Origin: a virus
Lineage: Duplodnaviria > Heunggongvirae > Uroviricota > Caudoviricetes
Length of the DNA stretch: 64,000 nt
Virus record (IMG/VR): IMGVR_UViG_3300027896_000028
Reading direction: 5' to 3' (one strand)
A program made the translations under genes and the position numbers. The notes beneath the pieces were generated by a model that was not told where the DNA came from, made no database searches, and saw only the letters and a program-made list of their open reading frames with translations. Of this stretch, positions 51,746 to 64,000 are shown piece by piece; positions within the stretch are counted from its first letter, which is position 1; every line of letters starts with the position of its first letter.

Positions 51746-51749
51746 TAAA

Positions 51750-51782
51750 TGGCGGATGAGGAGGGAGTTCCACCCCCGGACG
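51750..51782 (-). other. tRNA 3'-end fragment (T-arm + acceptor 3' strand + CCA; Ser-like)
   Basis: The minus strand reads GGGGG-TGGAACT-CCCTC-CTCATCC-G-CCA. This closely resembles the 3' end of tRNA-Ser at 63778..63871. There is no 5' partner. Confidence 0.35.
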
Positions 51783-51847
51783 TTTTTTAGGCGTCGACTG
51801 TTTAGCAAACAGTTGTGTAAATGTGACATACACGTCTCATCCAAAAA

Positions 51848-51923
51848 TGGTACCCTAGGCCGGTCTTGCACCGGCACTTGACAGATTTTAAGTCTGTTGA
51901 CTCTGCTTTTGGTCTACTAGGGC
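51848..51923 (-). tRNA. tRNA-like gene, anticodon UAA (Leu-type anticodon but class I length; non-canonical D/T loops)
   Basis: 76 nt with an encoded CCA. Acceptor GCCCTAG/CTAGGGT (G1-U72), D-loop AAAAGCAG without GG, anticodon stem ACAGA/TCTGT, loop CUUAAAA, T-arm GCCGG-TGCAAGA-CCGGC, discriminator A. Confidence 0.55.
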
Positions 51924-52012
51924 GTCAAATAAACTCCCCCAGGATTACGCTTTGTTATAGGCCTCAGGGTCACCTGATTATTAGCTTTACAAGAGGCGCT
52001 GGAGGATTAAAA

Positions 52013-52089
52013 TGGTACTCCGGGTAGGACTTGCACCTACAACATTTGAGGTTTGAGCTCAACGACTCTTCTAATTGGTCTACCGGAGC
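52013..52089 (-). tRNA. tRNA-like gene, anticodon CAA (Leu-type anticodon, class I length; non-canonical D/T loops)
   Basis: 77 nt with CCA. Acceptor GCTCCGG/CCGGAGT (G1-U72), anticodon stem TTGAG/CTCAA, loop CUCAAAC, T-arm GTAGG-TGCAAGT-CCTAC, A73. Confidence 0.55.
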
Positions 52090-52090
52090 A

Positions 52091-52600
52091 TTAGTTGCTA
52101 CTAAAATCAGGATCAGTGAAATGAACGTGACCAGTCTTGTAATGTCTACGAGCTATTATCACATTTTCAAGTTCATTGATTGCATTCTTATCCGCTTCAA
52201 CTGTTTTAAATTGCTTGGTCGCTAACGACGTAATCAAGGGTATCGCTTGCTTTTGTACACCCTGTACAAACTCTTGAATTTTATCTAACTCTTCAGGGCT
52301 GAGAGTAGTTGGATCAAGTTTTAAGTGCTCTGATATATCGAGAAGAGCATCACCTAAGAGTCTACTAGTTATATCATCTACAACAATGTGGCTAGTAAAG
52401 AACCCTGCAGCGTCTCTAATCTCACCAGCAGCACAACTAGCGGCTACTTCTTCCTTTTCGTAATACTCACCTTCGATAATATCCTCTATTACTTTAAGAG
52501 TTCTGTCAATCAACATTCGAGGTGTAATATACCGCTGAGCATACTTCATCAGATCTTTACCGTTGTATGCTTCATTTATTAGATGATTGTCCAAGTTCAT
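52091..52600 (-). CDS. hypothetical protein
   Basis: 169 aa, acidic. Confidence 0.5.
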   Translation of the reverse strand: MNLDNHLINEAYNGKDLMKYAQRYITPRMLIDRTLKVIEDIIEGEYYEKEEVAASCAAGEIRDAAGFFTSHIVVDDITSRLLGDALLDISEHLKLDPTTLSPEELDKIQEFVQGVQKQAIPLITSLATKQFKTVEADKNAINELENVIIARRHYKTGHVHFTDPDFSSN

Positions 52601-52619
52601 AATATTATTTAGGCAAAAG

Positions 52620-52675
52620 TGGTCCTCCCAGCGAGACTCACACTCGCAACCTAGCCCTTATCGAGGGGTAGCTCT
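52620..52675 (-). other. tRNA 3' half (class II: anticodon-stem 3' strand, long variable arm, T-arm, acceptor, CCA)
   Basis: The minus strand reads GAGCT-ACCCCTCGATAAGGGCTAGG-GCGAG-TGTGAGT-CTCGC-TGGGAGG-A-CCA. It pairs with the 5' half at 53171..53200 (acceptor CCTCCTG/TGGGAGG and anticodon stem AGCTC/GAGCT). Confidence 0.45.
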
Positions 52676-52688
52676 ATTAAATAATTAT

Positions 52689-53087
52689 ATGAAGACATCT
52701 AATTGTTTAAATTGTAAAGTAACATTTAATTATAATGGCTCTAACTATCATGGTAAGTATTGCTCAAATAAATGCCAAGGAGAGTATAGACAGAAGCAAT
52801 ATCTGATAAATCTCAAATCTGGAGCATTAAACGGTAAGACTATAAATAGACCTAGTGTATATGCTCATTTAGTTCGTGAGAACGGTAATAGATGCGCTAT
52901 ATGCCTTACAGAAGGTATATGGAATGAAAAACCGTTGAGGTTATGGGTAGATCATATAGACGGCAATGCCTCCAATAATACCTGGACTAATTTTAGATTA
53001 ATATGTCCTAACTGTGAATCACAGTTAGATACATGCAGAGCTAAGAATAAAGGTAAGGGCAGAAAAGCCATCGGTATGAAATGGTAG
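52689..53087 (+). CDS. HNH homing endonuclease
   Basis: Track ORF 52587..53087; ATG chosen at MKTSNCLNC. N-terminal Cys4 finger, then NRCAICL...WVDHIDGNASNNTWTNFRLICPNCES (HNH). Its stop overlaps the 3' end of the tRNA at 53082. Confidence 0.7.
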   Translation: MKTSNCLNCKVTFNYNGSNYHGKYCSNKCQGEYRQKQYLINLKSGALNGKTINRPSVYAHLVRENGNRCAICLTEGIWNEKPLRLWVDHIDGNASNNTWTNFRLICPNCESQLDTCRAKNKGKGRKAIGMKW

Positions 53088-53156
53088 TCCTGGCAGGATT
53101 TTCGCCCGCAACCTGAGGGTTATATGCCCACTGCTCTAAAATTGAGCTACAGGACC
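53082..53156 (-). tRNA. tRNA-like gene, anticodon loop CAUAUAA (UAU, Ile-like, if canonical numbering applies)
   Basis: 75 nt with CCA. Acceptor GGTCCTG/CAGGACT (G1-U72), D-arm GCTC-AATTTTA-GAGC (TT in place of GG), T-loop CGAAAAT. A sits at position 33, which is atypical. Confidence 0.45.
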
Positions 53157-53170
53157 GTTAAATTTATAAA

Positions 53171-53200
53171 GAGCTTGCTCTACAATTGAGCTACAGGAGG
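53171..53200 (-). other. tRNA 5' half (acceptor 5' strand, D-arm, anticodon-stem 5' strand)
   Basis: The minus strand reads CCTCCTG-TA-GCTC-AATTGTA-GAGC-A-AGCTC. It is followed directly by an intact tRNA and is complementary to the 3' half at 52620..52675. Confidence 0.4.
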
Positions 53201-53203
53201 AAA

Positions 53204-53279
53204 TGGTAGACACGACAGGTCTTGCACCCGCACTAAGCCGGTCCTAAGCCGACTGCCTCTGCTTTTGGGCTACGTGTCC
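53204..53279 (-). tRNA. tRNA-like gene, anticodon UAG (Leu-type anticodon, class I length)
   Basis: 76 nt with CCA. Acceptor GGACACG/CGTGTCT (G1-U72), D-loop AAAAGCAGA, anticodon stem GTCGG/CCGGC, loop CUUAGGA, T-loop TGCAAGA, A73. Confidence 0.55.
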
Positions 53280-53286
53280 ATTAAAA

Positions 53287-53362
53287 TGGCAGCCTGTGAA
53301 GGACTTGCACCCTCAATTACCGTTCCGAAGACGGTAGTGATATCTAATTTCACCAACAGGCC
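53287..53362 (-). tRNA. tRNA-Arg (anticodon UCG), non-canonical D/T loops
   Basis: 76 nt with CCA. Acceptor GGCCTGT/ACAGGCT (G1-U72), D-arm GTGA-AATTAGATA-TCAC, anticodon stem ACCGT/ACGGT, loop CUUCGGA, T-arm GAGGG-TGCAAGT-CCTTC, G73. Confidence 0.6.
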
Positions 53363-53441
53363 ATGGAGCTGAATGTCGGTAATGCTCCGACTTATCTAGT
53401 TTACGAAACTAGTGCATCACTTTATATGCTTATCCAGCAAA

Positions 53442-54077
53442 TCAACTCTTTATATATTTAGAAGGAGGAAACTCTTCGTGGTAGTGATTTACACCACTTG
53501 TAAATAAACTCTTGTATGTATCATTCTTACCTAAACTAAGCAACCACTTTTCAGATGAATAATAATCAGTTGTATCACAGGTTGGCAACTGTTTGATATA
53601 CGAACTCTTTGCCCACCAAAAATTACCTGAGTAGTGTAATCCAAAACCAGGTGCATCCTGTTTATTAACACCAACTGTATTCATCTCCTCCAAAGCTTTA
53701 AAACACTCTTTCCACTCTTCTATAAGAAAGTACTCCATATAAGCTATCCAGCTATTAACAGGTACACTATCACATTTAGTAACACCTTTCGAGTGGATAT
53801 AAAGTATATTAGCTTCTGATTCTAAGTTTCGGCAAAACTCTCTAATGTAGTTAGTTGTTAACGATTCATTAGAAAACATAACCGGTGACAAACTGATAAC
53901 CTCTATCTTCGGATGCACTTTAAACTTCGGTGCATTTGACATATCACCGTTCAAGGAAACATATATCTTATCTACTGCGTCAATGAGACCACTCGATACG
54001 ATTTTATTATACGTCTTCAGGAAGCGTTCGTGGTAATCGTTTAAAGTTGATGAATGATAAAATATGTAACTTTGCAT
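53442..54077 (-). CDS. hypothetical protein
   Basis: 211 aa. Confidence 0.5.
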   Translation of the reverse strand: MQSYIFYHSSTLNDYHERFLKTYNKIVSSGLIDAVDKIYVSLNGDMSNAPKFKVHPKIEVISLSPVMFSNESLTTNYIREFCRNLESEANILYIHSKGVTKCDSVPVNSWIAYMEYFLIEEWKECFKALEEMNTVGVNKQDAPGFGLHYSGNFWWAKSSYIKQLPTCDTTDYYSSEKWLLSLGKNDTYKSLFTSGVNHYHEEFPPSKYIKS

Positions 54078-54131
54078 ATGGTTATTTTATAACATCTCTA
54101 TTTGTTATCAACTTTAATAAATGGCGGGAAA

Positions 54132-54392
54132 TTAATCAGGTTCAATGAATGATAAATCGTTTTGAAACCAAGATTCACCTTCATGATGTTTACAGCACTT
54201 ATTTGAGCAATAACCCCACCAATCTCCTTCATATTGAGGATGATCTTTGGTATCCCAATTACAGCAAACATGGATGATAGGCCAACCACAATCTTTGCAA
54301 TGTATACCTTCTGAAATTTCTATCGTCTCTGTGCTAGTTTTATATTTCAACTTATGCATAAATGGTGGGAATGATAGGATTTGCACATACAC
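54132..54392 (-). CDS. Cys/His-rich small protein
   Basis: 86 aa with CKDCGW...HVCCNW...CSNKCCKHHEG. Confidence 0.4.
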   Translation of the reverse strand: MYVQILSFPPFMHKLKYKTSTETIEISEGIHCKDCGWPIIHVCCNWDTKDHPQYEGDWWGYCSNKCCKHHEGESWFQNDLSFIEPD

Positions 54393-54446
54393 TGTTTACC
54401 TCCTCAAGGTAACGTCTCCTGCTAGTTGGACTACATTCCCGTAAAT

Positions 54447-54523
54447 TGGTGCGCTCGGAGGTAGTTGCAACCTCACCATATCCGGTTAAGAGCCGGGTGC
54501 CGGTCTACTGTAGCTTCAGGCGC
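54447..54523 (-). tRNA. tRNA-like element (anticodon loop CUCUUAA, CUU Lys-like); poor D-arm
   Basis: Ends in ACCA. T-arm GAGGT-TGCAACT-ACCTC, anticodon stem CCGG/CCGG, acceptor with one mismatch. The D-arm cannot be folded canonically. Confidence 0.3.
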
Positions 54524-54529
54524 ATTAAA

Positions 54530-54952
54530 TTATAACGACGATATACTCTGCGATAAGGCTGATTGTTTAAATGCTTCCATCTCTTCTTTGCTTGGTCGCA
54601 CTTCGACTCTTTCAGTCTTAAATTCTAGGTTAATAGACATATCAACATCAGAACCATCCAATGCTTTGATAGTCTTACCTTTAACAGGTCTCTCGTAAAC
54701 ACATTGCATATAGAAGACTTTGCCCATCTTCTTTGGTTTGATATCATCTAGTTGTTTACCTATCTCGAGCTGCTCTGTAAACCACTTATCACCGTCACGC
54801 ATTTCTTTCGGGCGCCCATTAGAAAAGTGAGCATTGAAGTATTCGAGGAGTTCTTCCTTTGTACCGACTAATATTTCAGCTTTTTGTATCATGGAATCAA
54901 TATAACAGATAAAGATATAAATGCAACTGAAGTTTAGAAATGGTCGCAGCAC
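54530..54952 (-). CDS. hypothetical protein
   Basis: 140 aa. GTG start, N-terminal hydrophobic segment. Confidence 0.45.
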   Translation of the reverse strand: MLRPFLNFSCIYIFICYIDSMIQKAEILVGTKEELLEYFNAHFSNGRPKEMRDGDKWFTEQLEIGKQLDDIKPKKMGKVFYMQCVYERPVKGKTIKALDGSDVDMSINLEFKTERVEVRPSKEEMEAFKQSALSQSISSL

Positions 54953-55015
54953 CCGGTGCTACCCCGGACTGAACTGGCTTATGAAACCTGCTCGATCGTT
55001 GGATCTACTGCGAAA

Positions 55016-55090
55016 TGGAGCCACCAGAAGGATATGCACCTTCCTGTCTGACTTACCAAGTCAGTTCATCGCTGTCTATGAGTTGGCGGC
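55016..55090 (-). tRNA. tRNA-Thr (anticodon GGU), non-canonical D/T loops
   Basis: 75 nt with CCA. Acceptor GCCGCCA/TGGTGGC, D-arm TCAT-AGACAGCG-ATGA, anticodon stem CTGAC/GTCAG, loop UUGGUAA, T-arm GAAGG-TGCATAT-CCTTC, U73. Confidence 0.6.
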
Positions 55091-55097
55091 GTTGTGA

Positions 55098-55499
55098 TTA
55101 ACAATTAATCAAATCAATATTCTGATCACCTGCAATGTTTACCAACCCGTTATCACCTGCGATGTTAAACAACTGACATGAATCACCAGGTGTTGGAGTA
55201 GGTGTTGGGGTAGGTGTGATCTCTGTCGGTGTCGGAGTCGGCAAAATCTCTGTCGGTGTTGGTGTGATCTCTGTCGGTGTCGGAGTCGGCAAAATCTCTG
55301 TCGGTGTTGGTGTGGTACCTGGTGTGGGTGGAACGTACAAGGTATGGCCTACTGTAGTAGCAGATGTGTTAGATATCTTAGGTTGTATACCTCTTGCTCT
55401 TCCACCAGCTCGCACTGATGCCGCTGCAGCTATTCTCGCCTCTGAACGCGTAGCTCTTGCTATTCTAATACTATCAAATTGTGATGGTGACTGTGCCAT
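55098..55499 (-). CDS. Pro/Thr-repeat protein
   Basis: 133 aa with TPTPTEILPTPTPTEITP tandem repeats. Encoded by a perfect 2 x 48-bp DNA tandem duplication. Confidence 0.5.
   Translation of the reverse strand: MAQSPSQFDSIRIARATRSEARIAAAASVRAGGRARGIQPKISNTSATTVGHTLYVPPTPGTTPTPTEILPTPTPTEITPTPTEILPTPTPTEITPTPTPTPTPGDSCQLFNIAGDNGLVNIAGDQNIDLINC
55213..55308. repeat. perfect 48-bp tandem duplication (2 copies)
   Basis: ggtgtgatctctgtcggtgtcggagtcggcaaaatctctgtcggtgtt occurs twice, back to back. Confidence 0.8.
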
Positions 55500-55518
55500 A
55501 CATATATTTATCTAAAAC

Positions 55519-55592
55519 TGGAGCTCAGTATTGGATTTGATCCGTCGTTTCAGTCTTACCAAGACCGTGTTCTGCTATTGAACTAACAAGGC
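55519..55592 (-). other. chimeric tRNA-like element (Thr-GGU-like 5' two-thirds + unrelated T-arm/acceptor 3' end with CCA)
   Basis: The 5' part is GCCTTGT-TA-GTTC-AATAGCA-GAAC-A-CGGTC-UUGGUAA-GACTG. The 3' part GGATCAAATCCAATACTGAGC-T-CCA does not pair with the 5' acceptor strand. Confidence 0.35.
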
Positions 55593-55595
55593 AAA

Positions 55596-55624
55596 TGGAG
55601 CTCAATATTGGATTTGCACCAATG
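55596..55624 (-). other. tRNA 3'-end fragment (T-arm ATTGG-TGCAAAT-CCAAT + acceptor 3' strand ATTGAGC + U + CCA)
   Basis: A direct repeat of the 3' end of the chimera. There is no 5' partner adjacent. Confidence 0.35.
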
Positions 55625-55655
55625 AATAATCGTTTTGAGTTCATTAAATAATTAT

Positions 55656-56435
55656 ATGACACAAAAAACAGGTATTTATACTAATTGTAAGCAATGTAAT
55701 AAGTCTATATATGTTACAAGAGGTGCAGCGAAGAAACGTCAAAATCATTTTTGTTCGCAGACATGCTCAGCAAAATACAATAACGCGCATAGAGCACCTA
55801 TGACAAGCAAGCAGAAGCAACAGAGATCAGATACCCTACGCAAATTTCATGGATTGCCTACACGAATATTGACACAACCAATTATGCCACTCGAACATCG
55901 ACTTAGTATATCTCGTGCTCACAGGGAAGGTAAGATTATGCAAAAGGAATATACTTGTAAGGTGTGCAATCAACTATTCATTTCACATAGGCAAGGCAAG
56001 GCATATTTTCCTACTGTTTGTTCAGATGAATGTCGCGGGCAACAATTAATTAAAAACGCGCACGGATGTAGATACATCTATAAAAACACCCATATGCAAT
56101 CTAGCTGGGAAGTTAGTATTGCAAAATTTCTTGATGAACAAGGTATAGAGTGGGTACGCCCTAAGTGTATACCTTACAAATATCTAGATGGAAAGATGAG
56201 AAATTATTTTGCTGATTTTTTTATACCATCTCTTAATTTATATGTAGATCCTAAAAATCCGATAATTGCCCGCATTCAAAAGGATAAGCTTCTTATTTTA
56301 GAAAAACAGATTGATCTTATCTATGGTACGGTGGATTTTCTCAAACAAGAAATACTTAAACGGGTTAAGAAGATGGAGCTAGGTGTCGGTGCTGCCCCGA
56401 CTAACTTCCGCTTTGCAGGCGGTGCCGTTTGCTGA
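55656..56435 (+). CDS. putative homing endonuclease (N-terminal Zn fingers + C-terminal Vsr/DUF559-like PD-(D/E)xK domain)
   Basis: Track ORF 55635..56435 (TTG start); ATG at MTQKTGIY chosen. It shares the upstream leader TTAAATAATTATATG with the HNH gene at 52689. The motif YFADFFIP...LYVDPKNP resembles the Vsr-like nuclease core. The C-terminal 20 codons run antisense through a tRNA. Confidence 0.55.
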   Translation: MTQKTGIYTNCKQCNKSIYVTRGAAKKRQNHFCSQTCSAKYNNAHRAPMTSKQKQQRSDTLRKFHGLPTRILTQPIMPLEHRLSISRAHREGKIMQKEYTCKVCNQLFISHRQGKAYFPTVCSDECRGQQLIKNAHGCRYIYKNTHMQSSWEVSIAKFLDEQGIEWVRPKCIPYKYLDGKMRNYFADFFIPSLNLYVDPKNPIIARIQKDKLLILEKQIDLIYGTVDFLKQEILKRVKKMELGVGAAPTNFRFAGGAVC

Positions 56436-56449
56436 TTCGGTAACCTAGC
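56374..56449 (-). tRNA. tRNA-Cys (anticodon GCA), non-canonical T-loop
   Basis: 76 nt with CCA. Acceptor GCTAGGT/ACCTAGC (perfect), U8 A9, anticodon stem CCGC/GCGG, loop CUGCAAA, T-arm GTCGG-GGCAGCA-CCGAC, U73. Confidence 0.5.
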
Positions 56450-56550
56450 TTAAGACGAGTCCCTTAGCTTCTTGGGTAACTGAGCATTAAATGGGGTGAC
56501 CGGTGGGTAATTACTTCGATTTTATCACCCCATCAGATATAAGTATTAAT

Positions 56551-57282
56551 ATGAAGACAACAGTAAGCTGTCCGATGTGTAAAACGGCTTTCAAACAACT
56601 AACTAATAGCCATTTTAAGCGGTGTCATAATACTACAATACACGATATAAAAATACAATTCCCTAATATTCAATTAAAATCGGATGCAACATATTCATTA
56701 GAATGCAAACAAATGGTATTAAAACGCCATTTAGCTGTTAAATTTAAAAATACAGAAAAGAAACAACGAGTTATTGAATATAATTCTAATCCTAAATGCT
56801 GTCAACAATGCTCAAAACCTATTTCATATACGAATAAGCGTTATGCTGATTTTTGTTCACATAAATGTGCAGCTGTTTTTAATAAATCACATCTCAGTTT
56901 TTCAGTTAAACGTAGTAAGGCTGAGATGTATATGGAACGGTTACTAACGAAATCTTTTCCTCTTATACCCATTGAAACAAACAACAGAAGTGTGCTCTCA
57001 ACTAAATTTGAAATTGATATATTATTACCAACGATTAAACTAGCTATTGAAATAAATGGGCCGACTCATTTTATACCAGTTCATGGTGATGAGATTCTTA
57101 AAAAAATACAGAATAGAGATTTACAGAAGGTATTAGAACTCCAGAAATTAAATTATACTTTTTTTGTTATTGATATAAGTCAGTTTACAAATTTTGAAAA
57201 GACTGTGAAATATCTTGATATTATATTCATTAAACAAATTAAGCCTTTTATTGAGCAGTATCAAAAAGAAATGGTCAGGTAG
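56551..57282 (+). CDS. putative homing endonuclease (Zn finger + Vsr/DUF559-like PD-(D/E)xK domain), paralog of 55656..56435
   Basis: Track ORF 56503..57282 (GTG start); the ATG at MKTTVSCPMCK has the same ATGAAGACA context as the HNH gene at 52689. The motif FEIDILLP...LAIEINGPTHF is a D...(E/Q)xK-like core. Its stop overlaps the tRNA at 57272. Confidence 0.55.
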   Translation: MKTTVSCPMCKTAFKQLTNSHFKRCHNTTIHDIKIQFPNIQLKSDATYSLECKQMVLKRHLAVKFKNTEKKQRVIEYNSNPKCCQQCSKPISYTNKRYADFCSHKCAAVFNKSHLSFSVKRSKAEMYMERLLTKSFPLIPIETNNRSVLSTKFEIDILLPTIKLAIEINGPTHFIPVHGDEILKKIQNRDLQKVLELQKLNYTFFVIDISQFTNFEKTVKYLDIIFIKQIKPFIEQYQKEMVR

Positions 57283-57348: not shown

Positions 57349-57354
57349 ATAATC

Positions 57355-57423: not shown

Positions 57424-57427
57424 AAAA

Positions 57428-57943: not shown

Positions 57944-58609
57944 TTACAACTTTAAGGCTTTATCAACTTCTGATTTTTGTTTTTTACTGACACCCGCTTT
58001 ATGCATCACTTCATTACGCTTCATAGTGTCCATTATATTATCATCTATATGAATGACATCTGCAGCGGTTTTTGTTATCGCATTTGGTATTGCGGTCTTA
58101 CTAGTTACTACTGTTGTATCAATATTACACGTTTGTTTAAGATCCTCTATACACGATAAGAGCTCAGAAGTAAACACTTCGTCTGTCACAATATACAAGT
58201 GAGATATGTCATTAAATTCATTGTCTCTATCGCGAACCCAATCATGTAGGCATACAATATTTGAATGTGAGTTAACACGTACAGTATTCAATATTTTGTT
58301 CATTGCCTTGTATGGGTTTGAACTATGCTTAATTTCATGAACAGAGCGTACTTCGTTATCATATATTACAACGGTTACATCAGTGTTCAACTCTCCTATC
58401 TTATATGAAACCCACTGTAACTGAGTCATTATTGCCCAACCGTTTGATCTAGTTCGATATGACAGTGAAGCACTGGATGTATCAACAGCAATAACCAGTC
58501 TCGATTTCTTAGCTTTCGGTTTAACAAATTTCTTACCTGGTTCAAGCTTGAGCTCGGGTTGTATTGTTTGATAGGCTTCGACTAGAAGCGATGTATCCTT
58601 ATTGCTCAT
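57944..58609 (-). CDS. VWA-like domain protein (putative)
   Basis: 221 aa. LVIAVDTSSAS resembles a MIDAS DxSxS motif. Confidence 0.45.
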   Translation of the reverse strand: MSNKDTSLLVEAYQTIQPELKLEPGKKFVKPKAKKSRLVIAVDTSSASLSYRTRSNGWAIMTQLQWVSYKIGELNTDVTVVIYDNEVRSVHEIKHSSNPYKAMNKILNTVRVNSHSNIVCLHDWVRDRDNEFNDISHLYIVTDEVFTSELLSCIEDLKQTCNIDTTVVTSKTAIPNAITKTAADVIHIDDNIMDTMKRNEVMHKAGVSKKQKSEVDKALKL

Positions 58610-59421
58610 AAATTCATTGCATCAATTACGGTACCCATATCTTCCGGTTTAACACCAGATGAAATTGCATCGTGTTGCTTCTTAGATAGCTCTTTACCGT
58701 TTATATAGTAACCATGATGCAAATCGACCCGCTTAAATTCTACTGCTGGTCCATCCATACGGTGGTTTATAGTACAACCAGCATCTTTATAGTATAGTGT
58801 TACGAATCCTTTATCATCTTTACACAATTTTTCACCAGAAACTTTGTCAGTATAACCTACTATGTTTATAACATCTGTCATCTTTTTCCAACCTGTTACA
58901 AAGTATATACGAGTTTGACCTGCACCCCGTGATGTAAATTCCTTACGGGCATATATAAATGGTTCGCCATCTATTGTACCTGGTATATAAAACGATAATA
59001 GGTATCCTTTAGGTCCTTTTATCGGGTCGTAAGTCTCACCTTTATATAGAGAAGGTACAGTGTAAACAATACCTTGATACTCAACTTTTTGATCTATTGT
59101 AGATCTATTTACCTTAAATTTATTGAGATTATTGCGTGTTACAGAGCTCAGAGGTGCAGTATCAAGTGGAAATATCCAACCCGGTGAATGCTTTACAACT
59201 TTAGATTTACCAACAGTTAAGTTGATATCGTTATCAAAGATTTTGTCGCTGTACTTTGCCCACTTAGCTTCAGTAGCAGTACCCTCATACAACATTACCA
59301 GATTCTTATTGTCCGTCTTGTTTGCGCATCTCATTGACATACGGTAAATTCTTAACTTTTCTTTTAGCAGGGTTTCTGATACGCTTTGTAGGTGTTTCTT
59401 GATCCTCTTCCTGAGGTGCAC
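58606..59421 (-). CDS. hypothetical protein
   Basis: 271 aa, basic N-terminus. Confidence 0.5.
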   Translation of the reverse strand: MHLRKRIKKHLQSVSETLLKEKLRIYRMSMRCANKTDNKNLVMLYEGTATEAKWAKYSDKIFDNDINLTVGKSKVVKHSPGWIFPLDTAPLSSVTRNNLNKFKVNRSTIDQKVEYQGIVYTVPSLYKGETYDPIKGPKGYLLSFYIPGTIDGEPFIYARKEFTSRGAGQTRIYFVTGWKKMTDVINIVGYTDKVSGEKLCKDDKGFVTLYYKDAGCTINHRMDGPAVEFKRVDLHHGYYINGKELSKKQHDAISSGVKPEDMGTVIDAMNL

Positions 59422-59487
59422 GATGGGGCACAGGCATTGCTGCTATATTGTTAATGTGCTGCTGTATCTTATTAATATCCATCATAA

Positions 59488-60870
59488 TTATTTGGTACCT
59501 TTATCTAAAGATGCTTGAGCACGTGTCCAATCCTTTGACATAAACGATTTAAACGGCTCAACGTTCTTATTATCAAGTATAGTCTTAAATAGCGTAGCAG
59601 TTATCATATTATCCACTCTATTAAGTTTACTAAAGAAAACGTTCATCCATTCTTCATCAAGTTCGTGTAGGATACCGCACATCTCAGCGGCAACTTTTAT
59701 CTGTGTTTTCTTATCAGCTCCCATCAGTCTCTTTTGAAGCTCTGATGTGCAGCGTGAAAGAACACCATGGAGTTGATCAGTGCTAACACCTTCCGTCTCC
59801 TTGGTGTTCTTTTTCAAACCGATATGCTTCTTAGGGTTAGATACTAACTTATCCCAATCGAAATGACGCATATAACGCAAGTGCGCCATAAATCTACGAG
59901 ACCATGCTGGGCCACATGACTCACCAGCAGCTATTTCAATCTCTGTCATCGGATCGTAACTCAACTTACCATTACTCGCTTTGAAATCTTTATAGATTTC
60001 CTCCATATCTTCACTCAATGTAACAAACGAGCGAGGACATGCAAACTGATTATCGAAAGAAGGTTTCTCGTAGAAATTCTTTTCTGGATCAATTTCAACA
60101 AACTCACAGATGTATTCACTAATATTATTCATTCGTGCCCACTTTAGCCAAGTTGGAGCATCTGCAACCATTATACCAGCTTTAAAACGACTGGTTAAAG
60201 CGATCGGAAGTGGTTCATTGAAATCTGCACCTAAGTTACCTGCAGCAACAATACCCCAATCATCATTCATCTTCAAGTTACCAATCTTGCGATCTAATAC
60301 TAACTGAAATAGCGCCTTTTGTACAGCTTGGTGACCTTGATTTATTTCATCAAGGAAAAGCATACCAGATGAAGAAGGTATACCCATGATATATGCATAA
60401 AGCTGTGGCTTCATCTCGAGATATTCCTTCCTGCTTCTGATATCAATAATACCCGTAATGTCAGAAGGTTCTAACATCGCTGTGCGAATATCCCAAAAGA
60501 AGAAGTAATCTTTATAGAGGTTGTTATCGATAATATGACGCTGTTCATCAACACTTAATAATGCCCAGTCAACTACTTTACGCTTACCACCAAGTTTCTG
60601 ATCGACTATTCTTGCTAAATCGTTAGCTGATTCTTTAATCACAGCAGTTTTACCAAGACCAGGATCACCATAAACAAGCACAGATCTATGAGTCTTAAAA
60701 CCTCTGACAATAGAACGAACGGTTTGTTCAATTGAACGCTCAACTAGGTTCTTTTCCGCATGAGAGTGTGTAGGTGTATTAGTATCTGGAAACTCAGAGA
60801 TATCGATAGCATCTTCCTCTGCATATTCACAGAGTTTTCTAAAAGTATCGATTGTTTTGAAGGCTCTCAT
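59488..60870 (-). CDS. AAA+ ATPase (MoxR/AAA_5-like)
   Basis: 460 aa. Walker A VLVYGDPGLGKTAV, Walker B MLFLDEINQG and a sensor AAGN. Confidence 0.65.
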   Translation of the reverse strand: MRAFKTIDTFRKLCEYAEEDAIDISEFPDTNTPTHSHAEKNLVERSIEQTVRSIVRGFKTHRSVLVYGDPGLGKTAVIKESANDLARIVDQKLGGKRKVVDWALLSVDEQRHIIDNNLYKDYFFFWDIRTAMLEPSDITGIIDIRSRKEYLEMKPQLYAYIMGIPSSSGMLFLDEINQGHQAVQKALFQLVLDRKIGNLKMNDDWGIVAAGNLGADFNEPLPIALTSRFKAGIMVADAPTWLKWARMNNISEYICEFVEIDPEKNFYEKPSFDNQFACPRSFVTLSEDMEEIYKDFKASNGKLSYDPMTEIEIAAGESCGPAWSRRFMAHLRYMRHFDWDKLVSNPKKHIGLKKNTKETEGVSTDQLHGVLSRCTSELQKRLMGADKKTQIKVAAEMCGILHELDEEWMNVFFSKLNRVDNMITATLFKTILDNKNVEPFKSFMSKDWTRAQASLDKGTK

Positions 60871-60874
60871 ATAT

Positions 60875-62254
60875 TTATTTAATGTCGATAAGAAAGGTTT
60901 TGAGTCTAGTTTCAGGTTGTAGAGTTTTAATACCTTCCGCTGTGGTAACTAATGCAAAGTTCTTTGTCGGTGGTGGTAATAGATTAATAGGTGGATGCTC
61001 GACAAAACCGTCAGTTATATAAACAACTGCAGTAGCCTGCTTTTCTAGTTTATTCTTTCTAAGATATTCAGCTACCGACCCCATTGTAGTTCCACCACTC
61101 CTGAGATTGTTTAAAATAGTTTGTAACAACGTTGGAGCAGTACCTTTAGTTACGTTGATATGATAGTAAGCAACGTCATGCCACAACACTATGCATATGT
61201 TAGCTTGAGGGTAATGCCTGAAGACGTTAAGAGTTTCTGTGACAAAAGCTGAGAGTTCTTGTTGACCGATAGAACCTGAGGTATCGATAGCGATCACAAT
61301 GGGCGGTAAAATATCTTCATTGTGCATCTTTGGTAATATAACACCAGCTGCAAGAGGTCTCTTAGCAAATTTTCGCTGATCGTATCTTGCAACCGTCTGC
61401 ACTATAATCTGTTTCAACACAACTCGCCAATCAACGCGAGGTTTATGGATATCCATGATGTGTTCTCTCATGCCGCCTTCACCAGTACCTCGCTGTTTAC
61501 CCCTTCCAGCATCTTCATCATTTTTAGATGATTGGCTAGCTTGGCTAACCGCACGTCTAATATCATCAGCAGATTTATTACCAATTTCACCATCAACAAT
61601 AACGATCGGGGTACCGTCATTTGTTTTTCCTGGTGTACCCAGGACAATATCGAGAGGTGCAACTGCATTAAACTTCATTTGCTTATCAAGAATTTTATAC
61701 AAATATTCTGCACTCTTATTGCTAACGTCTATAGATACTGCCTTACCTGATGCTGTTAGCTTTGAATTTAACACAACCTTAGCTGTAGCACCATTGTTAC
61801 TCATTACAGGTATACAGCCCGCAGATGGCAGTTTAAAACCATTGCGGAGTAGGTCTCGGTTCATAATGAAATCTGTAGCAATATTCCACAACTGGTGGTG
61901 ACGACCCTTCTTGCGATCAGATGTCATTGTTGCAATGTGAGATGCTTCATGAGCAAGTACACCTATGCATTCGTCAAAATCTAAAAATTCAAGAGCGAAT
62001 CGAGGATTTATATAAATGTTACCTTGGGTATCAACTGCCATTGTTGGTAAACTATAGGTAGTTACTACGTTAAGCTTCTGTAGAAAGTGACCTAGAAATG
62101 GTGCATGTTTATAGATTTGAAACTTAGAACCCTTTAATCTAAGTCTAAACTTATCTTCCTGTTCTGGTGTAAGTGGTACCGACATCTCGTCGTAATTAAG
62201 CTCACGCTTAGAAGCTTCAGTCAAAATATTCGCAACTGTGTCGTTAAATTTCAC
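60875..62254 (-). CDS. zinc-metallopeptidase (HExxH) + VWA domain protein (DUF2201-like partner of MoxR ATPases)
   Basis: 459 aa. VLAHEASHIATM is an HExxH motif. The C-terminal VIAIDTSGSIGQQEL is a VWA MIDAS motif. GTG start. The antisense ORF 61455..61901 is rejected. Confidence 0.65.
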   Translation of the reverse strand: MKFNDTVANILTEASKRELNYDEMSVPLTPEQEDKFRLRLKGSKFQIYKHAPFLGHFLQKLNVVTTYSLPTMAVDTQGNIYINPRFALEFLDFDECIGVLAHEASHIATMTSDRKKGRHHQLWNIATDFIMNRDLLRNGFKLPSAGCIPVMSNNGATAKVVLNSKLTASGKAVSIDVSNKSAEYLYKILDKQMKFNAVAPLDIVLGTPGKTNDGTPIVIVDGEIGNKSADDIRRAVSQASQSSKNDEDAGRGKQRGTGEGGMREHIMDIHKPRVDWRVVLKQIIVQTVARYDQRKFAKRPLAAGVILPKMHNEDILPPIVIAIDTSGSIGQQELSAFVTETLNVFRHYPQANICIVLWHDVAYYHINVTKGTAPTLLQTILNNLRSGGTTMGSVAEYLRKNKLEKQATAVVYITDGFVEHPPINLLPPPTKNFALVTTAEGIKTLQPETRLKTFLIDIK

Positions 62255-62277
62255 ACTATTATTTATGTCTTCTTAAA

Positions 62278-62353
62278 TGGCGCTTGTATCTGAAGTTGCA
62301 TCAGAAATTTAACCTTCGCAGGGTTATGTGATATCTATTTTCACCATACAAGC
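62278..62353 (-). tRNA. tRNA-Arg (anticodon GCG), non-canonical D/T loops
   Basis: 76 nt with CCA. Perfect acceptor GCTTGTA/TACAAGC, D-arm GTGA-AAATAGATA-TCAC, anticodon stem TAACC/GGTTA, loop CUGCGAA, T-arm TCTGA-TGCAACT-TCAGA, G73. Confidence 0.6.
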
Positions 62354-62387
62354 AAACCGGCGCTCTATCTAACTGAGCTACTCGAGC
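62354..62387 (-). other. tRNA 5' half fused upstream of tRNA-Arg(GCG)
   Basis: The minus strand reads GCTCGAG-TA-GCTC-AGTTAGATA-GAGC-G-CCGGT-UU and then runs directly into the next tRNA. There is no 3' partner adjacent. Confidence 0.35.
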
Positions 62388-62388
62388 A

Positions 62389-62580
62389 TTAAATTTTTTC
62401 GAAGTTATCAAGAGTATCCCATTCAAGCAACCTCTTGTGTGCACTATACTCTATTACAAGACCTCTAGATTCACGTTTAACAACACGGACCGTGTAACCA
62501 AAGCCTTTATGTTGAAGGACGTCACCAACACCCCACTCTTTAGGGGACTGTGTTTGTTCATAAAAGACCTTGAAAGTCAT
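62389..62580 (-). CDS. hypothetical protein
   Basis: 63 aa. Confidence 0.4.
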   Translation of the reverse strand: MTFKVFYEQTQSPKEWGVGDVLQHKGFGYTVRVVKRESRGLVIEYSAHKRLLEWDTLDNFEKI

Positions 62581-62599
62581 ATTATTATTTAGTCTTAAA

Positions 62600-62674
62600 T
62601 GGTAGCGCGTAGGGGTTACGCTCCCCTGCCTTAGCCTTGAAAGGGCTCTATCCTAACTATTAGACGAACACGCC
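62600..62674 (-). tRNA. tRNA-Glu (anticodon UUC), non-canonical D/T loops
   Basis: 75 nt with CCA. Acceptor GGCGTGT/ACGCGCT (G1-U72), anticodon stem AGCC/GGCT, loop CUUUCAA, T-arm AGGGG-AGCGTAA-CCCCT, A73. Confidence 0.55.
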
Positions 62675-62675
62675 A

Positions 62676-62999
62676 TTAAATTTGTCGAGCTTGGCAAGCT
62701 GGGCACCTGCGAAGCAGCTCAGTGTAGTTAGCTTTAACATCGTACCAACCTACATGATTAAAATTTTCTAAAACACTGCAATCTAGGGGTGTCTTATGCT
62801 TCATATTGCGATTCAACATCTCTTCTGCAATCTCATCGTGTCGAGTTTGCAATGTCTTTGTATCGACTAAGCCAGTAGAAGCATACTTACCAAGTGCAAC
62901 ACCTTTTTTGATAGAACCAATAAACATATGATGTTCTACGTGCTCACCAAGCAGGTGTTTATTGCACATTAATTTAGGATTTACATGCCATTGTCTCAT
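62676..62999 (-). CDS. pyrimidine-dimer DNA glycosylase (T4 endonuclease V / DenV-like)
   Basis: 107 aa. LMCNKHLLGEHVEHHMFIGSIKKGV aligns with the DenV motif [24 protein letters not shown]. Confidence 0.55.
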   Translation of the reverse strand: MRQWHVNPKLMCNKHLLGEHVEHHMFIGSIKKGVALGKYASTGLVDTKTLQTRHDEIAEEMLNRNMKHKTPLDCSVLENFNHVGWYDVKANYTELLRRCPACQARQI

Positions 63000-63040
63000 A
63001 GATTTAATGTATAAAATCTATGAAGTAAAATCAATGCATT

Positions 63041-63499
63041 TTACCCGTTTTGATTCTTTAGGTTGGAGATGTAGTCACCGTAAGAGTTATAATCAGTAAA
63101 GATTCTTGTCCAAATAAAGAGGTTGTTCTTTCCTCCGTTAACAGTCTCTTTAATACCAATTACATGGAAAGGTGGTTGACGTTTTTGTACTTCTACACCG
63201 TAAATGAGGGTAGTAGGTTTACTAGGTCCCTCTGTCTTAAATCTGATAGATGCTTTCAATTCGAAAATTGCATCTTGTCCTCGGCTAGCTTTCCACGCTC
63301 GAAAATATCGACGCATAATAGCTCGCTCGTTAGGCTTCAACTTCTTCTTATCTGATAAGAACTGTTTAGTTACCTTTTCACGATCACCGGCACCTCGGTC
63401 ATATCGAAGAGCTACCTTGGATGGTCTATGAGCCTCTGCTAGAATAAACGACTTAAAGCTTTTCATTTTTAACCTCTGGTTTAGCAGCTGCATCAGCAA
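63041..63499 (-). CDS. hypothetical basic protein
   Basis: 152 aa. Confidence 0.45.
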   Translation of the reverse strand: MLMQLLNQRLKMKSFKSFILAEAHRPSKVALRYDRGAGDREKVTKQFLSDKKKLKPNERAIMRRYFRAWKASRGQDAIFELKASIRFKTEGPSKPTTLIYGVEVQKRQPPFHVIGIKETVNGGKNNLFIWTRIFTDYNSYGDYISNLKNQNG

Positions 63500-63650
63500 A
63501 AGCGTCTTGGGTATCTACAGCTGTATCAACACCTAGAGCATGTTTAAAATCCTCTTCAGAATTAAACGTCAACACCGGGATATCTTGGACATCATAAGTG
63601 CTTTCAAGCATCAGTTGACCATCTGCGGCTTTTTTCAATTTCTTGCTCAT
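63453..63650 (-). CDS. hypothetical protein
   Basis: 65 aa, overlapping the previous ORF by 47 nt. Confidence 0.35.
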   Translation of the reverse strand: MSKKLKKAADGQLMLESTYDVQDIPVLTFNSEEDFKHALGVDTAVDTQDAFADAAAKPEVKNEKL

Positions 63651-63697
63651 ATTATTATTTATATGATATTGACAAATTAACCAATAGTCAATAAAAA

Positions 63698-63772
63698 TGG
63701 TCCACTAGGTTGGTATCGCACCAACGTCCACGGGGTTTCAATCCGTTGCTAATCTATCTCAGCTACTAGTGG
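63698..63772 (-). tRNA. tRNA-Phe (anticodon GAA), non-canonical T-loop
   Basis: 75 nt with CCA. Perfect acceptor CCACTAG/CTAGTGG, U8 A9, anticodon loop UUGAAAC, T-arm GTTGG-TGCGATA-CCAAC, A73. Confidence 0.65.
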
Positions 63773-63777
63773 TTAAA

Positions 63778-63871
63778 TGGCGGATAAGTGAGGTGCTGCC
63801 CCCCAGTCCGAGTGGATACGGCTCCGATCGGTTTTCAAGACCGCCCCGAACGCTGGTCCGGATACTCATCC
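63778..63871 (-). tRNA. tRNA-Ser (anticodon UGA), class II with long variable arm
   Basis: 94 nt with CCA. Acceptor GGATGAG/CTTATCC, anticodon stem CGGT/ACCG, loop CUUGAAA, long variable stem-loop, T-arm TGGGG-GGCAGCA-CCTCA, G73. Confidence 0.6.
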
Positions 63872-63877
63872 ATGAAA

Positions 63878-64000
63878 TGGAGCGGCCGAAGGACTTTCAC
63901 CTCATCAATCGGGTATAAACCGATTATCTTATATACTTCAGAGCCCAAGCCGGGTCACCGGTACGTTGGCCCACGTGTATTATTAGACGATTACCGCATA
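63878..64000 (-). other. partial class II tRNA-like gene (3' end with CCA and a long variable arm); 5' end beyond the window
   Basis: The minus strand ends ...ATCGG-TTTATAC-CCGAT...GAGG-TGAAAGT-CCTT-CGGCCGC-T-CCA. The anticodon could not be assigned. Confidence 0.3.

Follow-up and report, generated by a model that had tools for sequence, protein, structure and literature searches.

How far can the corner of a transfer RNA (tRNA) depart from its textbook form and still be the corner of a working tRNA? It is taught that cytoplasmic-type tRNAs almost universally carry G18, G19, U54, U55, C56 and A58, and the pseudouridine at position 55 (Psi55) is among the most conserved RNA modifications. The question is raised by a tRNA array in the IMG/VR virus record IMGVR_UViG_3300027896_000028 (Caudoviricetes), of which a stretch of 64,000 nucleotides (nt), referred to here as the window, was analysed. 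The phage contig measures 157 kilobases (kb), and the window holds the 3' part of the array. A cloverleaf parser of our own, complemented by tRNA-His, recovered 19 intact tRNA genes that encode their CCA; all of them lie on the minus strand within 51176-63871, and they share an unusual elbow, the place where the D-loop meets the T-loop. As far as can be judged from sequence, these are very probably genuine translational-adaptor tRNAs belonging to the mobile array of an uncultured large phage, with a compensated A18:G55 elbow.

According to the parser, G55 is present in all 19 tRNAs of the window, and GG is absent from all 19 D-loops. A18-G19 stands opposite G55-C56 in 16 of the 19, as in the D-loops AAUAGUUA, AAUUAGAUA and AAAAGCAG (Rfam alignments and parser); overall, A18 replaces G18 in about 17/19, and G19 and C56 are retained in 16/19. 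The T-loops read UGCAAGU/A, UGCAACU, UGCAAAU, AGCGUUA/AGCGUAA or GGCAGCA, among others. Where position 56 has changed, position 19 can follow it: tRNA-Ser(GCU) has G56 with A18-C19, a compensated C19:G56 pair, and tRNA-Ile(UAU) has G55 A56 with U19, a compensated U19:A56 pair. The 54:58 combination is U:A in 11 genes, A:U in three, G:G in two, C:A in two and U:U in one, with A54:U58 found in the loops AGCGUUA, AGCGUAA and AGCAUUA, G54:G58 in GGCAGCA, and C54:A58 in CGCAAAU and CGAAAAU. Loop sizes are canonical, with T-loops of 7 nt and D-loops of 7-10 nt, or 11 nt in both class II tRNA-Ser. Only G18 and U55 are replaced, and they are replaced together; the elbow is altered yet not lost.

Whether this coupling holds beyond the window was examined in other phage and mobile arrays. 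The comparison set was obtained by an exact-pattern scan of IMG/VR (GGTGCAARTCC-N11-CCATTT), which returned at least 120 loci, nearly all of them tRNA arrays; in the loci listed, from which the covariation counts below are drawn, the parser identified 775 tRNAs with CCA, of which 683 are non-redundant. The D-loop contains GG in 390 of 402 tRNAs with U55-C56 versus 27 of 239 with G55-C56 (odds ratio 255, Fisher p = 2e-121), and most of the 27 exceptions read A18-G19-G20. Alignment is unambiguous for tRNAs whose D-loop has 7 nt and whose variable loop has 4; among these, position 18 is G in 62/62 of those with U55 and A in 69/70 of those with G55, and position 19 is G with both. The 18:55 rule also holds within a single contig in 25 of 29 mixed arrays. 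Furthermore, in homologous pairs, i.e. tRNAs with the same anticodon and at most 30% divergence, a G-to-A change at 18 was observed in 18 of the 19 pairs differing at 55, and in none of the 221 with the same base at 55. Double changes of this kind separate the window tRNA-Thr(CGU) (D-loop AUAAAGUG, T-loop AGCAUUA) from a tRNA-Thr of the huge phage LR745206 (UAAUGGUG, AUCGUUA), and a G55 tRNA-Leu of locus L051 from its canonical class I counterpart in Corynebacterium phage StAB.

The neighbouring contact behaves in the same way, as A56 occurs with U19, U56 with A19 and G56 with C19. Rare loops follow this rule with U55 (UUAGA with 'GU', UUUGA with 'GA', UUGGA with 'GC') and with G55 (UGAAA or CGAGA with 'AU', UGGGA with 'AC', UGUAA with 'AA'). 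In an ungapped alignment of 63 sequences, 19:56 is 100% paired (GC 55, UA 5, AU 1, CG 1, UG 1) and shows 8 double changes; pairing over the entire structure amounts to 95.3%, compared with 54.5% in shuffles and 38-46% with slid partners, and the stems are 96-99.7% paired, with double changes at every stem pair. At 54:58, the comparison set shows U:A, A:U, G:G and C:A. As tertiary pairs are not among the criteria of the parser, the tests at 18:55, 19:56 and 54:58 are unaffected by it, and their coupling argues for a compensated alternative elbow.

An original prediction, made from the letters of this DNA alone, had already read G55 and the T-loops, and these readings proved exact, G55 being present in 19/19 genes. 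It had also proposed that D-loop and T-loop vary together from one isoacceptor to the next, in an elbow that may still fold; the covariance analysis across related phage genomes agrees with it, 18:55, 19:56 and 54:58 covarying in hundreds of tRNAs. Its wording that the tRNAs lack G18G19 was right in that no D-loop contains GG and G18 is replaced, and too broad in that G19, with the G19:C56 pair, is kept in 16/19. The G1:U72 pairs which it had added to the pattern do occur, in 7/19 window genes, but do not belong to the elbow design: in the loci listed their frequency is 17% in G55 and 16% in U55 tRNAs, and a tie between the two features was rejected. A tie to the encoded CCA, whereby a CCA-adding enzyme would be unable to measure the altered elbow, was likewise rejected, CCA being present in about 92% of both U55 and G55 tRNAs.

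The share of G55 per array ranges from about 5% to 100% in the loci listed, and uniformly G55 arrays exist (17/17, 21/21, 22/23). In the non-redundant set, the T-loop classes are UGC.A (137), GGC.G (57) and CGC.A (11), and Rfam independently finds 69 tRNAs across five nearly all-G55 loci. A scan of GTDB, with one genome per species, for the A18 version of a common D-arm followed by GUGCRA gave 48 matches. GC-rich contigs binned as Verrucomicrobiota carry whole G55 arrays with CCA, e.g. 21/21 in Lacunisphaera and 10/10 in Opitutus; since these GC-rich arrays share the same elbow, AT bias is not its cause, and AT-richness was discarded as an explanation.

About 30 of the 48 GTDB matches are a lone conserved A18/G55 tRNA in Nostocales, with an encoded CCA and the anticodon CUA, which would read amber; it is found in contigs L147 (2503-2574), L151 (about 7122-7193), L144, L160 and some 25 more. 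The Tolypothrix copy has the anticodon GCA, and that of Nostoc carneum has tRNA-like fragments, an L7/L12-like protein and a VWA protein in its neighbourhood. A separate observation concerns Caulobacter phage CcrRogue, where an unannotated class II tRNA-Ser-like gene with the T-loop AUCGAGA occupies 6001-6097 of L180 (51051-51147 of the record). Situated in the tRNA region of this cultured phage, it is a homolog of a G55 tRNA-Ser of L051, i.e. a tRNA with a variant T-loop was overlooked by annotation.

What kind of corner would such a pair build? On the evidence of these sequences, a putative A18:G55 pair replaces the canonical G18:Psi55 tertiary pair, and G19:C56 and 54:58 are kept or separately compensated. 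In the T-loops of flavin mononucleotide (FMN) and cobalamin riboswitches, UGNRA accounts for 88.7% and CGNRA for 10.9%, and the base between loop positions 4 and 5 is nearly always an adenine making two hydrogen bonds to the sugar edge of G2; the UUCRA of tRNA is the exception among T-loops, and a GGAAG T-loop is known in ribosomal RNA (rRNA) (bioRxiv 10.1101/2022.12.26.521914). The YGNRA core is recognisable in the window as UGCRA/CGCRA in 9/19 tRNAs, as CGAAA in tRNA-Ile(UAU) and as UGGRA in tRNA-Ser(GCU) and tRNA-Arg(CCU); the UGCAU of tRNA-Thr(GGU) breaks its final A, and the remaining six belong to the A54:U58 and G54:G58 classes. By analogy, the T-loop would have changed from the tRNA-specific UUCRA to the general YGNRA, with an intercalating adenine at position 18. 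The L-shape and the flat G19:C56 face, which is used by the ribosome and RNase P, would be preserved.

On chemical grounds, A18/G55 tRNAs can accept neither Psi55 (by TruB) nor 2'-O-methylguanosine at position 18 (Gm18, by TrmH), and 5-methyluridine at position 54 (m5U54) is impossible on the A54 or G54 forms. A review of T-loop modifications describes U55 as conserved and mentions neither G55 nor A18 (PMC7912444). A yeast suppressor tRNA tolerated no single mutation at G18, U55, G19, C56, U54 or A58 (PMC4117946), so that the coupled changes seen here would imply selection for function.

The tRNA identity of the genes can be assessed from how they were detected. ARAGORN reports 10 tRNAs in the window, nine of them on the minus strand within 51176-63772 and the tenth being a canonical tRNA-Met at 24494-24569. 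The Rfam model RF00005 gives 12 matches in the array at its gathering threshold and 14 with permissive filters, at scores of 33-51 bits, all below the 74 bits of the tRNA-Met; 13 of the 14 are intact genes, at 39-51 bits against a gathering threshold of 29 bits, and one is a decayed copy at 55519-55592. Six genes fall below the Rfam threshold, namely tRNA-Ser(UGA), Cys, Thr(GGU), Lys, Ser(GCU) and Arg(CCU), the last of which is recovered by ARAGORN. The parser demands stems of 7, 4, 5 and 5 base pairs (bp) with at least 18-19 of the 21 pairs formed, followed by a discriminator and CCA. It yields 18 minus-strand genes in 51176-63871 with 18-21 of 21 pairs each, tRNA-Lys(CUU) being the weakest of the 19 at 18/21, and tRNA-His is the nineteenth. 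No parser match was obtained in 20 Markov shuffles of the array region, and the plus strand of the whole window has one weak match, at the threshold of 18 of 21 pairs. Two further low-scoring parser matches were dropped as they lie inside open reading frames (ORFs) and have no T-loop-like loop.

The features expected of functional tRNAs are preserved. All 19 genes encode CCA, mostly followed by UUU, and in all of them the anticodon loop has 7 nt, U33 and a purine at position 37, for tRNA-Ser(UGA) after re-registration by 1 nt. Identity elements are kept, with A73 in the four tRNA-Leu, U73 in tRNA-Cys, G73 and a long variable arm in the tRNA-Ser, and A20 in tRNA-Arg(UCG) and tRNA-Arg(GCG). The array would be transcribed as one or a few long precursors; RNase P would cut these, as would 3'-processing nucleases of the host, the latter presumably at the U-rich trailers after the encoded CCA. 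Because the identity elements are in place, host synthetases could be expected to charge the products, which host ribosomes would then use. Together with the encoded CCA and the terminator that closes the array, these elements are indirect signs of expression, end processing and aminoacylation.

The earlier count of at least 16 minus-strand cloverleaf genes with CCA is thus raised to 19 by the combination of ARAGORN, Rfam and parser, and the tRNA-Met at 24494, named as the lone canonical tRNA, is so inside the window. Scoring by standard tools gave a divided answer, with nine genes accepted by ARAGORN and 13 of 19 by Rfam, and five missed by both. The placing of the array within 51750-64000 has to be revised, as its last gene lies at 51176-51252 and it runs past 64000 upstream in the parent contig. 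An error of strand or coordinates as the source of the motif is contradicted by the recovery of the same sequence on an independent Logan contig, by the lack of shuffle matches and by the covariation of tertiary pairs.

The array is laid out below from its upstream end, on the minus strand unless stated otherwise; the 19 intact genes carry 19 anticodons for 12 amino acids. The upstream ten begin with the class II tRNA-Ser(UGA) (63778-63871; parser), which has the T-loop GGCAGCA (G54 G55 C56 A57 G58), G73 and CCA; Rfam offers only a sub-threshold tRNA-Sec match of 28.4 bits. Read by eye, the anticodon stem of this gene lies 1 nt away from where the parser puts it. tRNA-Phe(GAA) (63698-63772; D-loop AGAUAGAU, T-loop UGCGAUA) was found by ARAGORN, by Rfam at 47.2 bits and by the parser with 20/21 pairs. 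tRNA-Glu(UUC) (62600-62674) has the D-loop AAUAGUUA, the T-loop AGCGUAA with A54:U58, and G1:U72 (Rfam 44 bits, parser); its D-arm, counted with the retained identity elements, resembles that of E. coli tRNA-Glu. tRNA-Arg(GCG) (62278-62353) combines the D-loop AAAUAGAUA (A18 G19 A20) with UGCAACU and was detected by ARAGORN, by Rfam at 51 bits and by the parser at 21/21. Abutting it upstream, an orphan tRNA 5' fragment (62354-62388), consisting of the acceptor strand, the D-arm and the 5' anticodon stem, was read in the sequence; a search for orphan T-arms found no 3' mate for it anywhere in the window.

A protein cassette (57944-62254) is embedded in the array at this point. It comprises genes for a DUF2201 metallopeptidase/VWA protein (60875-62254) and a MoxR-like AAA+ ATPase (59488-60870), both assigned by Pfam, and two ORFs (58606-59421 and 57944-58609) with neither Pfam nor PHROGs matches. 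Homologs of the MoxR/DUF2201-VWA cassette in other phage contigs are not beside tRNAs; the closest homologs of the VWA peptidase, at 44-47% identity, are on short contigs without tRNAs.

Beyond the cassette follow tRNA-Val(UAC) (57540-57613; D-loop AAAAGCA, T-loop AGCGUUA, G1:U72; Rfam 43.6 bits, parser) and tRNA-Thr(UGU) (57428-57502; A8, D-loop AGACAGCG, T-loop CGCAAAU with C54; Rfam 40.3 bits, parser). Next to the latter lies a decayed tRNA-Thr(UGU)-like copy (57355-57423), read in the sequence and missed by every tool, with a 6-nt T-loop and a mismatched acceptor stem. tRNA-His(GUG) (57272-57348; D-loop AAUAGUUA, T-loop UGCAAAU) was identified by ARAGORN and by Rfam, whose 41.2-bit alignment has a deletion in the acceptor stem, and was folded with RNAfold. 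The plus strand then carries a homing/HNH endonuclease gene (56503-57282; PHROGs phrog_559, phrog_3339). tRNA-Cys(GCA) (56374-56449; U73, T-loop GGCAGCA) has 19/21 pairs and CCA in the parser. A decayed or chimeric tRNA-Thr(GGU)-like copy (55519-55592) has a poor acceptor stem, an Rfam score of 33.2 bits and no cloverleaf in RNAfold. A small ORF at 55098-55499, also on the minus strand, encodes a Thr/Pro-rich repeat with variants of TPTPTEI and has no Pfam or PHROGs match. The intact tRNA-Thr(GGU) (55016-55090; A8, D-loop AGACAGCG, T-loop UGCAUAU with U58; parser 21/21 and CCA) is followed by a candidate tRNA-like gene with the anticodon CAU (54941-55012), found by the orphan T-arm search and RNAfold, with a reduced D-arm, the T-loop GGUAGCA and CCA. 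The tenth gene is tRNA-Lys(CUU) (54447-54523; D-loop CAGUAGAC, T-loop UGCAACU; parser, with CCA).

The remaining nine open with the class I tRNA-Leu(GAG) (54363-54440), which has a 5-nt variable loop, the T-loop UGCAAAU and A73 (ARAGORN, Rfam 42.3 bits). tRNA-Thr(CGU) (53364-53438; loops as given above; Rfam 39.2 bits, parser 21/21) is followed by tRNA-Arg(UCG) (53287-53362; AAUUAGAUA, UGCAAGU, G1:U72; ARAGORN, Rfam 49.5 bits) and the class I tRNA-Leu(UAG) (53204-53279; AAAAGCAG, UGCAAGA, G1:U72; ARAGORN, Rfam 40.4 bits). tRNA-Ile(UAU) (53082-53156) has the D-loop AAUUUUA, the T-loop CGAAAAU and G1:U72 (Rfam 48.4 bits, parser). Two more class I genes are tRNA-Leu(CAA) (52013-52089; AAUUAGAAG, UGCAAGU, G1:U72; ARAGORN, Rfam 49.6 bits) and tRNA-Leu(UAA) (51848-51923; AAAAGCAG, UGCAAGA, G1:U72; ARAGORN, Rfam 48.5 bits). 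The class II tRNA-Ser(GCU) (51750-51842), with the T-loop UGGAACU (G55 G56) and A18-C19, has 21/21 pairs and CCA in the parser and is seen by ARAGORN at a relaxed threshold only. The last gene of the array, tRNA-Arg(CCU) (51176-51252; AAUUUAAUA, UGGGAGU), was detected by ARAGORN and by the parser at 21/21 and is not among the Rfam matches. A strong intrinsic terminator with a 15-bp stem and a U run (51139-51172; terminator scan) closes the array. With 19 intact genes in 12.7 kb, all in one orientation, its density is lowered by the inserted protein genes.

All four tRNA-Leu of the window (51848-51923, 52013-52089, 53204-53279 and 54363-54440) are of class I, with a 5-nt variable loop, a 3-bp D-stem and A73, unlike bacterial tRNA-Leu, which is normally of the long-arm type. 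Class I tRNA-Leu is common in phage arrays of both elbow types and occurs also in the Anabaena trn operon and in Corynebacterium phage StAB.

Two tRNA genes of the array are split in the anticodon loop. One, of Leu(UAA) type, has its 5' half at 56450-56485, read in the sequence and ending ...CUCGU CUUAA, and its 3' half, found by the orphan T-arm search, at 55596-55635, with the T-arm AUUGG UGCAAAU CCAAU, the acceptor strand AUUGAGC, U73 and CCA; the acceptor strand GCUCAGU of the former is complementary to the latter. The other has its 5' half at 53164-53200 (acceptor strand CCUCCUG, D-arm, 5' anticodon stem AGCUC and loop; sequence) and its 3' half at 52620-52674 (3' anticodon stem GAGCU, long variable arm, T-arm GCGAG UGUGAGU CUCGC, A73 and CCA; orphan T-arm search). 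The anticodon is UAA in one of the split genes and UAA or UAU in the other. Their halves still match, with 7/7 acceptor pairs in both and, in the anticodon stem, 5/5 pairs in the gene beginning at 53164-53200 and 4/5 in the other.

Each insert contains one intact tRNA, tRNA-Cys(GCA) or tRNA-Ile(UAU), and then an endonuclease gene on the opposite strand, namely 55635-56435 (plus strand; PHROGs phrog_22215, phrog_15137, phrog_15471) and an HNH homing endonuclease at 52587-53087 (plus strand; Pfam HNH_3; PHROGs phrog_10822, E 1e-18). These two genes have a common start region (TTAAATAATTATATG), and, counting that at 56503-57282, three endonuclease genes lie within the array, all opposite to the tRNAs. 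Judging by this layout, homing-endonuclease cassettes with a tRNA on board seem to have inserted themselves into the anticodon loops of tRNA genes. A group I intron was rejected as their origin, as no intron match was obtained up to E 10 and the inserts hold a full tRNA and an endonuclease gene.

Just downstream of the array, on the minus strand, a gene at 50167-50742 encodes a 191-amino-acid HNH protein (Pfam HNH, PHROGs) with an uncharacterised N-terminal domain. By tblastn, its homologs lie at or just past the 3' end of the arrays L136, L143, L018, L138, L100 and L052, and upstream of the array in L101. It was rejected as a marker of G55 arrays since it is also found beside canonical ones. 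BLASTP aligns it over its full length with the HNH protein encoded beside the trn operon on plasmid pDelta of Anabaena PCC 7120 (24% identity, E 8e-8), a homology which links the window array to the Anabaena-type mobile module of L-array and homing endonuclease, described in a study where SegB is also discussed (PMC8421152). Arrays with both this elbow and this HNH protein occur on AT-rich phage contigs and on GC-rich Verrucomicrobiota-binned contigs, a patchy spread that may reflect horizontal transfer. In INPHARED the sole homolog is in the huge phage LR756511, without tRNAs nearby.

The Logan contig mentioned above, L001, is 25 kb long and overlaps the window, its plus strand corresponding to the window's minus strand, and it reaches 8 kb further upstream. 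This upstream part holds about ten more tRNA genes, mostly G55, together with one canonical tRNA-Pro and, adjoining it, a transfer-messenger RNA (tmRNA; L001 6582-6963, Rfam 120 bits) with a tag ending in AVLA and a canonical UUCAA T-loop; another G55 array, L018, likewise carries a tmRNA. With the upstream part included, the array exceeds the 20 genes in one orientation that mark an L-array, and the tRNA set looks close to complete, with the tmRNA in addition. Two Rfam tRNA matches in L001 with canonical GG/UUC elbows are over-long, the one at 72-173 (102 nt) having an insertion of about 30 nt in the anticodon region and that at 3694-3837 (144 nt) an excess of about 70 nt; these insertions are too short for group I introns. 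A weak match to bacterial RNase P class B at L001 829-1007 was taken as probable chance (24.9 bits against a gathering threshold of 97, E 0.0017), although the tRNAs of this phage have an altered elbow.

Close relatives of the phage were not found: neither the array nor the all-G55 loci gave a megablast match in INPHARED, and a protein scan of IMG/VR with the MoxR ATPase was likewise negative. Elsewhere in the window are genes for NAMPT (2143-3759), a NADAR protein (4715-5206), a PRPP synthetase-like protein (5203-6099), two phosphoesterases (35087-35725 and 42089-42556), QueD (44010-44573) and an RNA ligase (45624-46667). The presence of NAMPT and PRPP synthetase, of NADAR and of the RNA ligase suggests regeneration of NAD+ (nicotinamide adenine dinucleotide), de-ADP-ribosylation and RNA repair, respectively, as counter-defence.

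Several points weigh against a genuine and compensated elbow and have to be set beside the covariation. tRNA-Arg(CCU) has G56 and no C in its D-loop, the sole uncompensated 19:56 case, and tRNA-Thr(GGU), with U58, and tRNA-Ile(UAU), with U18, depart from the pattern. The acceptor stem of tRNA-His is irregular in its best fold, with a possible extra U-1:A73 pair and a C7.C66 mismatch, compared with the bacterial G-1:C73. Five genes, tRNA-Ser(UGA), Cys, Thr(GGU) (the copy ending at 55090), Lys and Ser(GCU), escape ARAGORN and Rfam when these are run with default settings and were found by the parser only; moreover, the parser imposes the stems, and for most genes the CCA, so that cloverleaf pairing statistics are partly true by construction. 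The seed pattern demanded G55 and CCAUUU, so that the comparison set gives no estimate of prevalence. The geometry proposed for A18:G55 is carried over from riboswitch T-loops. The cultured phages examined (T5, CcrRogue, StAB and Gordonia phage Remus) are all canonical at U55, as is the uncultured huge phage LR745206, and the only experimentally studied example found is the GGCAGUA/A18 gene that ends the Anabaena trn operon.

Taken together with the evidence above, how is the array best explained? The idea that it holds non-functional relics or tRNA-like decoys, or results from a strand or coordinate error, can draw on the Rfam scores of only 33-51 bits, on the five genes missed by standard tools and on the true pseudogenes and split genes of the same array. 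It is nevertheless extremely improbable in view of the compensatory covariation in stems and three tertiary pairs, the retention of identity elements, U33/R37 and encoded CCA, the zero shuffle matches and the same sequence on an independent contig. The most likely explanation is a stably inherited, structurally equivalent 'second solution' to the tRNA corner, circulating in phage and mobile arrays, to which the variant elbow may add independence from host elbow-modifying or elbow-reading proteins. As to what maintains it, neutral drift and independence from host elbow-reading proteins are both viable. The elbow state is a stable lineage character, with few switches among homologous pairs, and many arrays mix both types; given mixed arrays and stable inheritance, a neutral compensated change fits about as well as an adaptive design. 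Neutral compensated drift, in which an isosteric alternative of equal fitness arose a few times in mobile lineages under relaxed modification constraint and spread by inheritance and endonuclease-driven exchange of array segments, is a real possibility, if short of probable. It would explain why the general T-loop repertoire (UGNRA, CGNRA, GGAAG) is mirrored in similar proportions, why mixed arrays are common and switches rare relative to divergence, and why neither CCA (92% in both types) nor G1:U72 (16% and 17%) is linked to the elbow, and the homing endonucleases and broken tRNA genes testify to frequent recombination. Under drift, however, housekeeping tRNAs should show the variant too, and there G18 and U55 are virtually universal (PMC7912444, PMC4117946); near-uniform G55 over about 20 identities would also need many double substitutions or a very old co-inherited array.

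An adaptive origin of 'orthogonal' tRNAs, which would serve the ribosome, RNase P, EF-Tu and the synthetases and evade TruB, TrmH and hypothetical defence nucleases reading the elbow or D-loop, or mark the phage's own tRNAs, can be put forward only tentatively. The more specific proposal, raised by the original prediction, that A18:G55 was selected since host tRNA nucleases or corner-reading proteins fail on it, so that phage translation survives defence, seems rather unlikely. Phage tRNAs do escape tRNA-targeting defence by sequence changes (PMC12409363, PMC12475279), and AriB of the PARIS system makes a base-specific D-loop contact at U16 (PMC12409363). The candidate counter-defence genes (RNA ligase, NAMPT with PRPP synthetase, NADAR) and the arrays that are uniformly G55 across isoacceptors, suggestive of genome-level pressure or co-inheritance, point in the same direction. 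On the other hand, no nuclease is known to read G18/Psi55, and those known from defence systems cut in the anticodon loop or stem; both elbow types occur side by side in many arrays, the state switches as seldom as a neutral lineage marker would, and evasion of one's own defence is a less natural account of the same elbow on Verrucomicrobiota-binned contigs and in the lone chromosomal tRNA of Nostocales. A self/non-self mark, by which the phage or the array-linked HNH protein would disable canonical host tRNAs and spare the A18/G55 set, is very improbable. The apparently near-complete tRNA set with its tmRNA and the synteny of the HNH gene with the 3' end of the all-G55 arrays L136, L143, L018 and L138 would suit such a mark, but the same HNH family stands beside the mostly canonical L100, L101 and L052 and the Anabaena trn operon and looks like a DNA homing endonuclease, and the elbow is canonical in three RNAs of the phage itself, tRNA-Met, tRNA-Pro and tmRNA.

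The compensated A18:G55 elbow bears on several wider matters. UUCRA/G18 would not be the sole workable corner, as a large natural tRNA family uses A18:G55 with clean covariation. This family offers a natural test of what Psi55, Gm18 and m5U54 do, being composed of presumably functional tRNAs beyond the reach of host elbow-modifying enzymes. With ARAGORN finding 9/19 and Rfam 13/19 genes, tRNA counts in phages and metagenomes are probably underestimated, which touches analyses of codon usage, host prediction and counter-defence. If the elbow were protective or self-marking, it would open a new axis of phage-host tRNA conflict beyond the anticodon loop, and A18:G55 tRNAs could supply orthogonal tRNA scaffolds.

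Among known systems, the tRNA clusters of phages T4 (with segB) and T5 (with HNH genes) are alike in their dense same-strand tRNAs, small ORFs, homing endonucleases, remnants and encoded CCA. The tRNAs of T4 are canonical at the elbow. Those of T5 have the canonical GG and UUCRA, in contrast to the window array with G55 in 19/19 and no GG. Zagryadskaya, Doyon and Steinberg reportedly described, in Nucleic Acids Research in 2003, E. coli suppressors selected in vivo in which G54:G58 and G54:A58 replace U54:A58; the GGCAGCA class of the window has G54 and G58 as in those laboratory variants, here natural, abundant and joined to A18:G55. Many metazoan mitochondrial tRNAs, as one account states, have lost the contacts between D-loop and T-loop and have loops of variable size (PMC2777451). 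They resemble the window tRNAs in being without the GG/UUC signature and in their poor model scores; the window tRNAs differ in keeping canonical loop sizes and covarying contacts, and are not of this elbow-less type, since the interaction is kept by covariation.

The FMN and cobalamin riboswitch T-loops share the UGNRA/CGNRA loop and an adenine supplied by the partner loop, which in the phage tRNAs is A18 opposite UGCRA/CGCRA; the window tRNAs are unlike them in the Watson-Crick pair at 19:56 and in the 7-nt loop on a 5-bp stem, so that the likeness implies no membership of a riboswitch family. The type I tRNA-Leu of Streptomyces coelicolor, with its short variable loop, is stated in one source to be charged by the single bacterial leucyl-tRNA synthetase (PMC6614811); it resembles the four window tRNA-Leu in its variable arm and A73, not in its elbow, and this type occurs with both U55 and G55. 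The closest parallel in organisation, the trn operon on plasmid delta of Anabaena PCC 7120 (PMC8421152), has a long array in one orientation, a homologous HNH protein, class I tRNA-Leu and, possibly, horizontal dissemination in common with the window. Its genes are nearly all canonical and the last one alone has GGCAGUA/A18, whereas in the phage-borne array of the window every intact gene has G55.

Phage tRNA clusters with homing endonucleases, L-arrays, class I tRNA-Leu and the T-loop chemistry of riboswitches and rRNA were thus already known. What appears to be new is the natural, coupled A18:G55 change and its wide occurrence in phage and mobile arrays: full-text literature searches found no description of it in natural tRNAs, though one may exist elsewhere. 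The canonical elbows of cultured phages may explain why the variant went unremarked.

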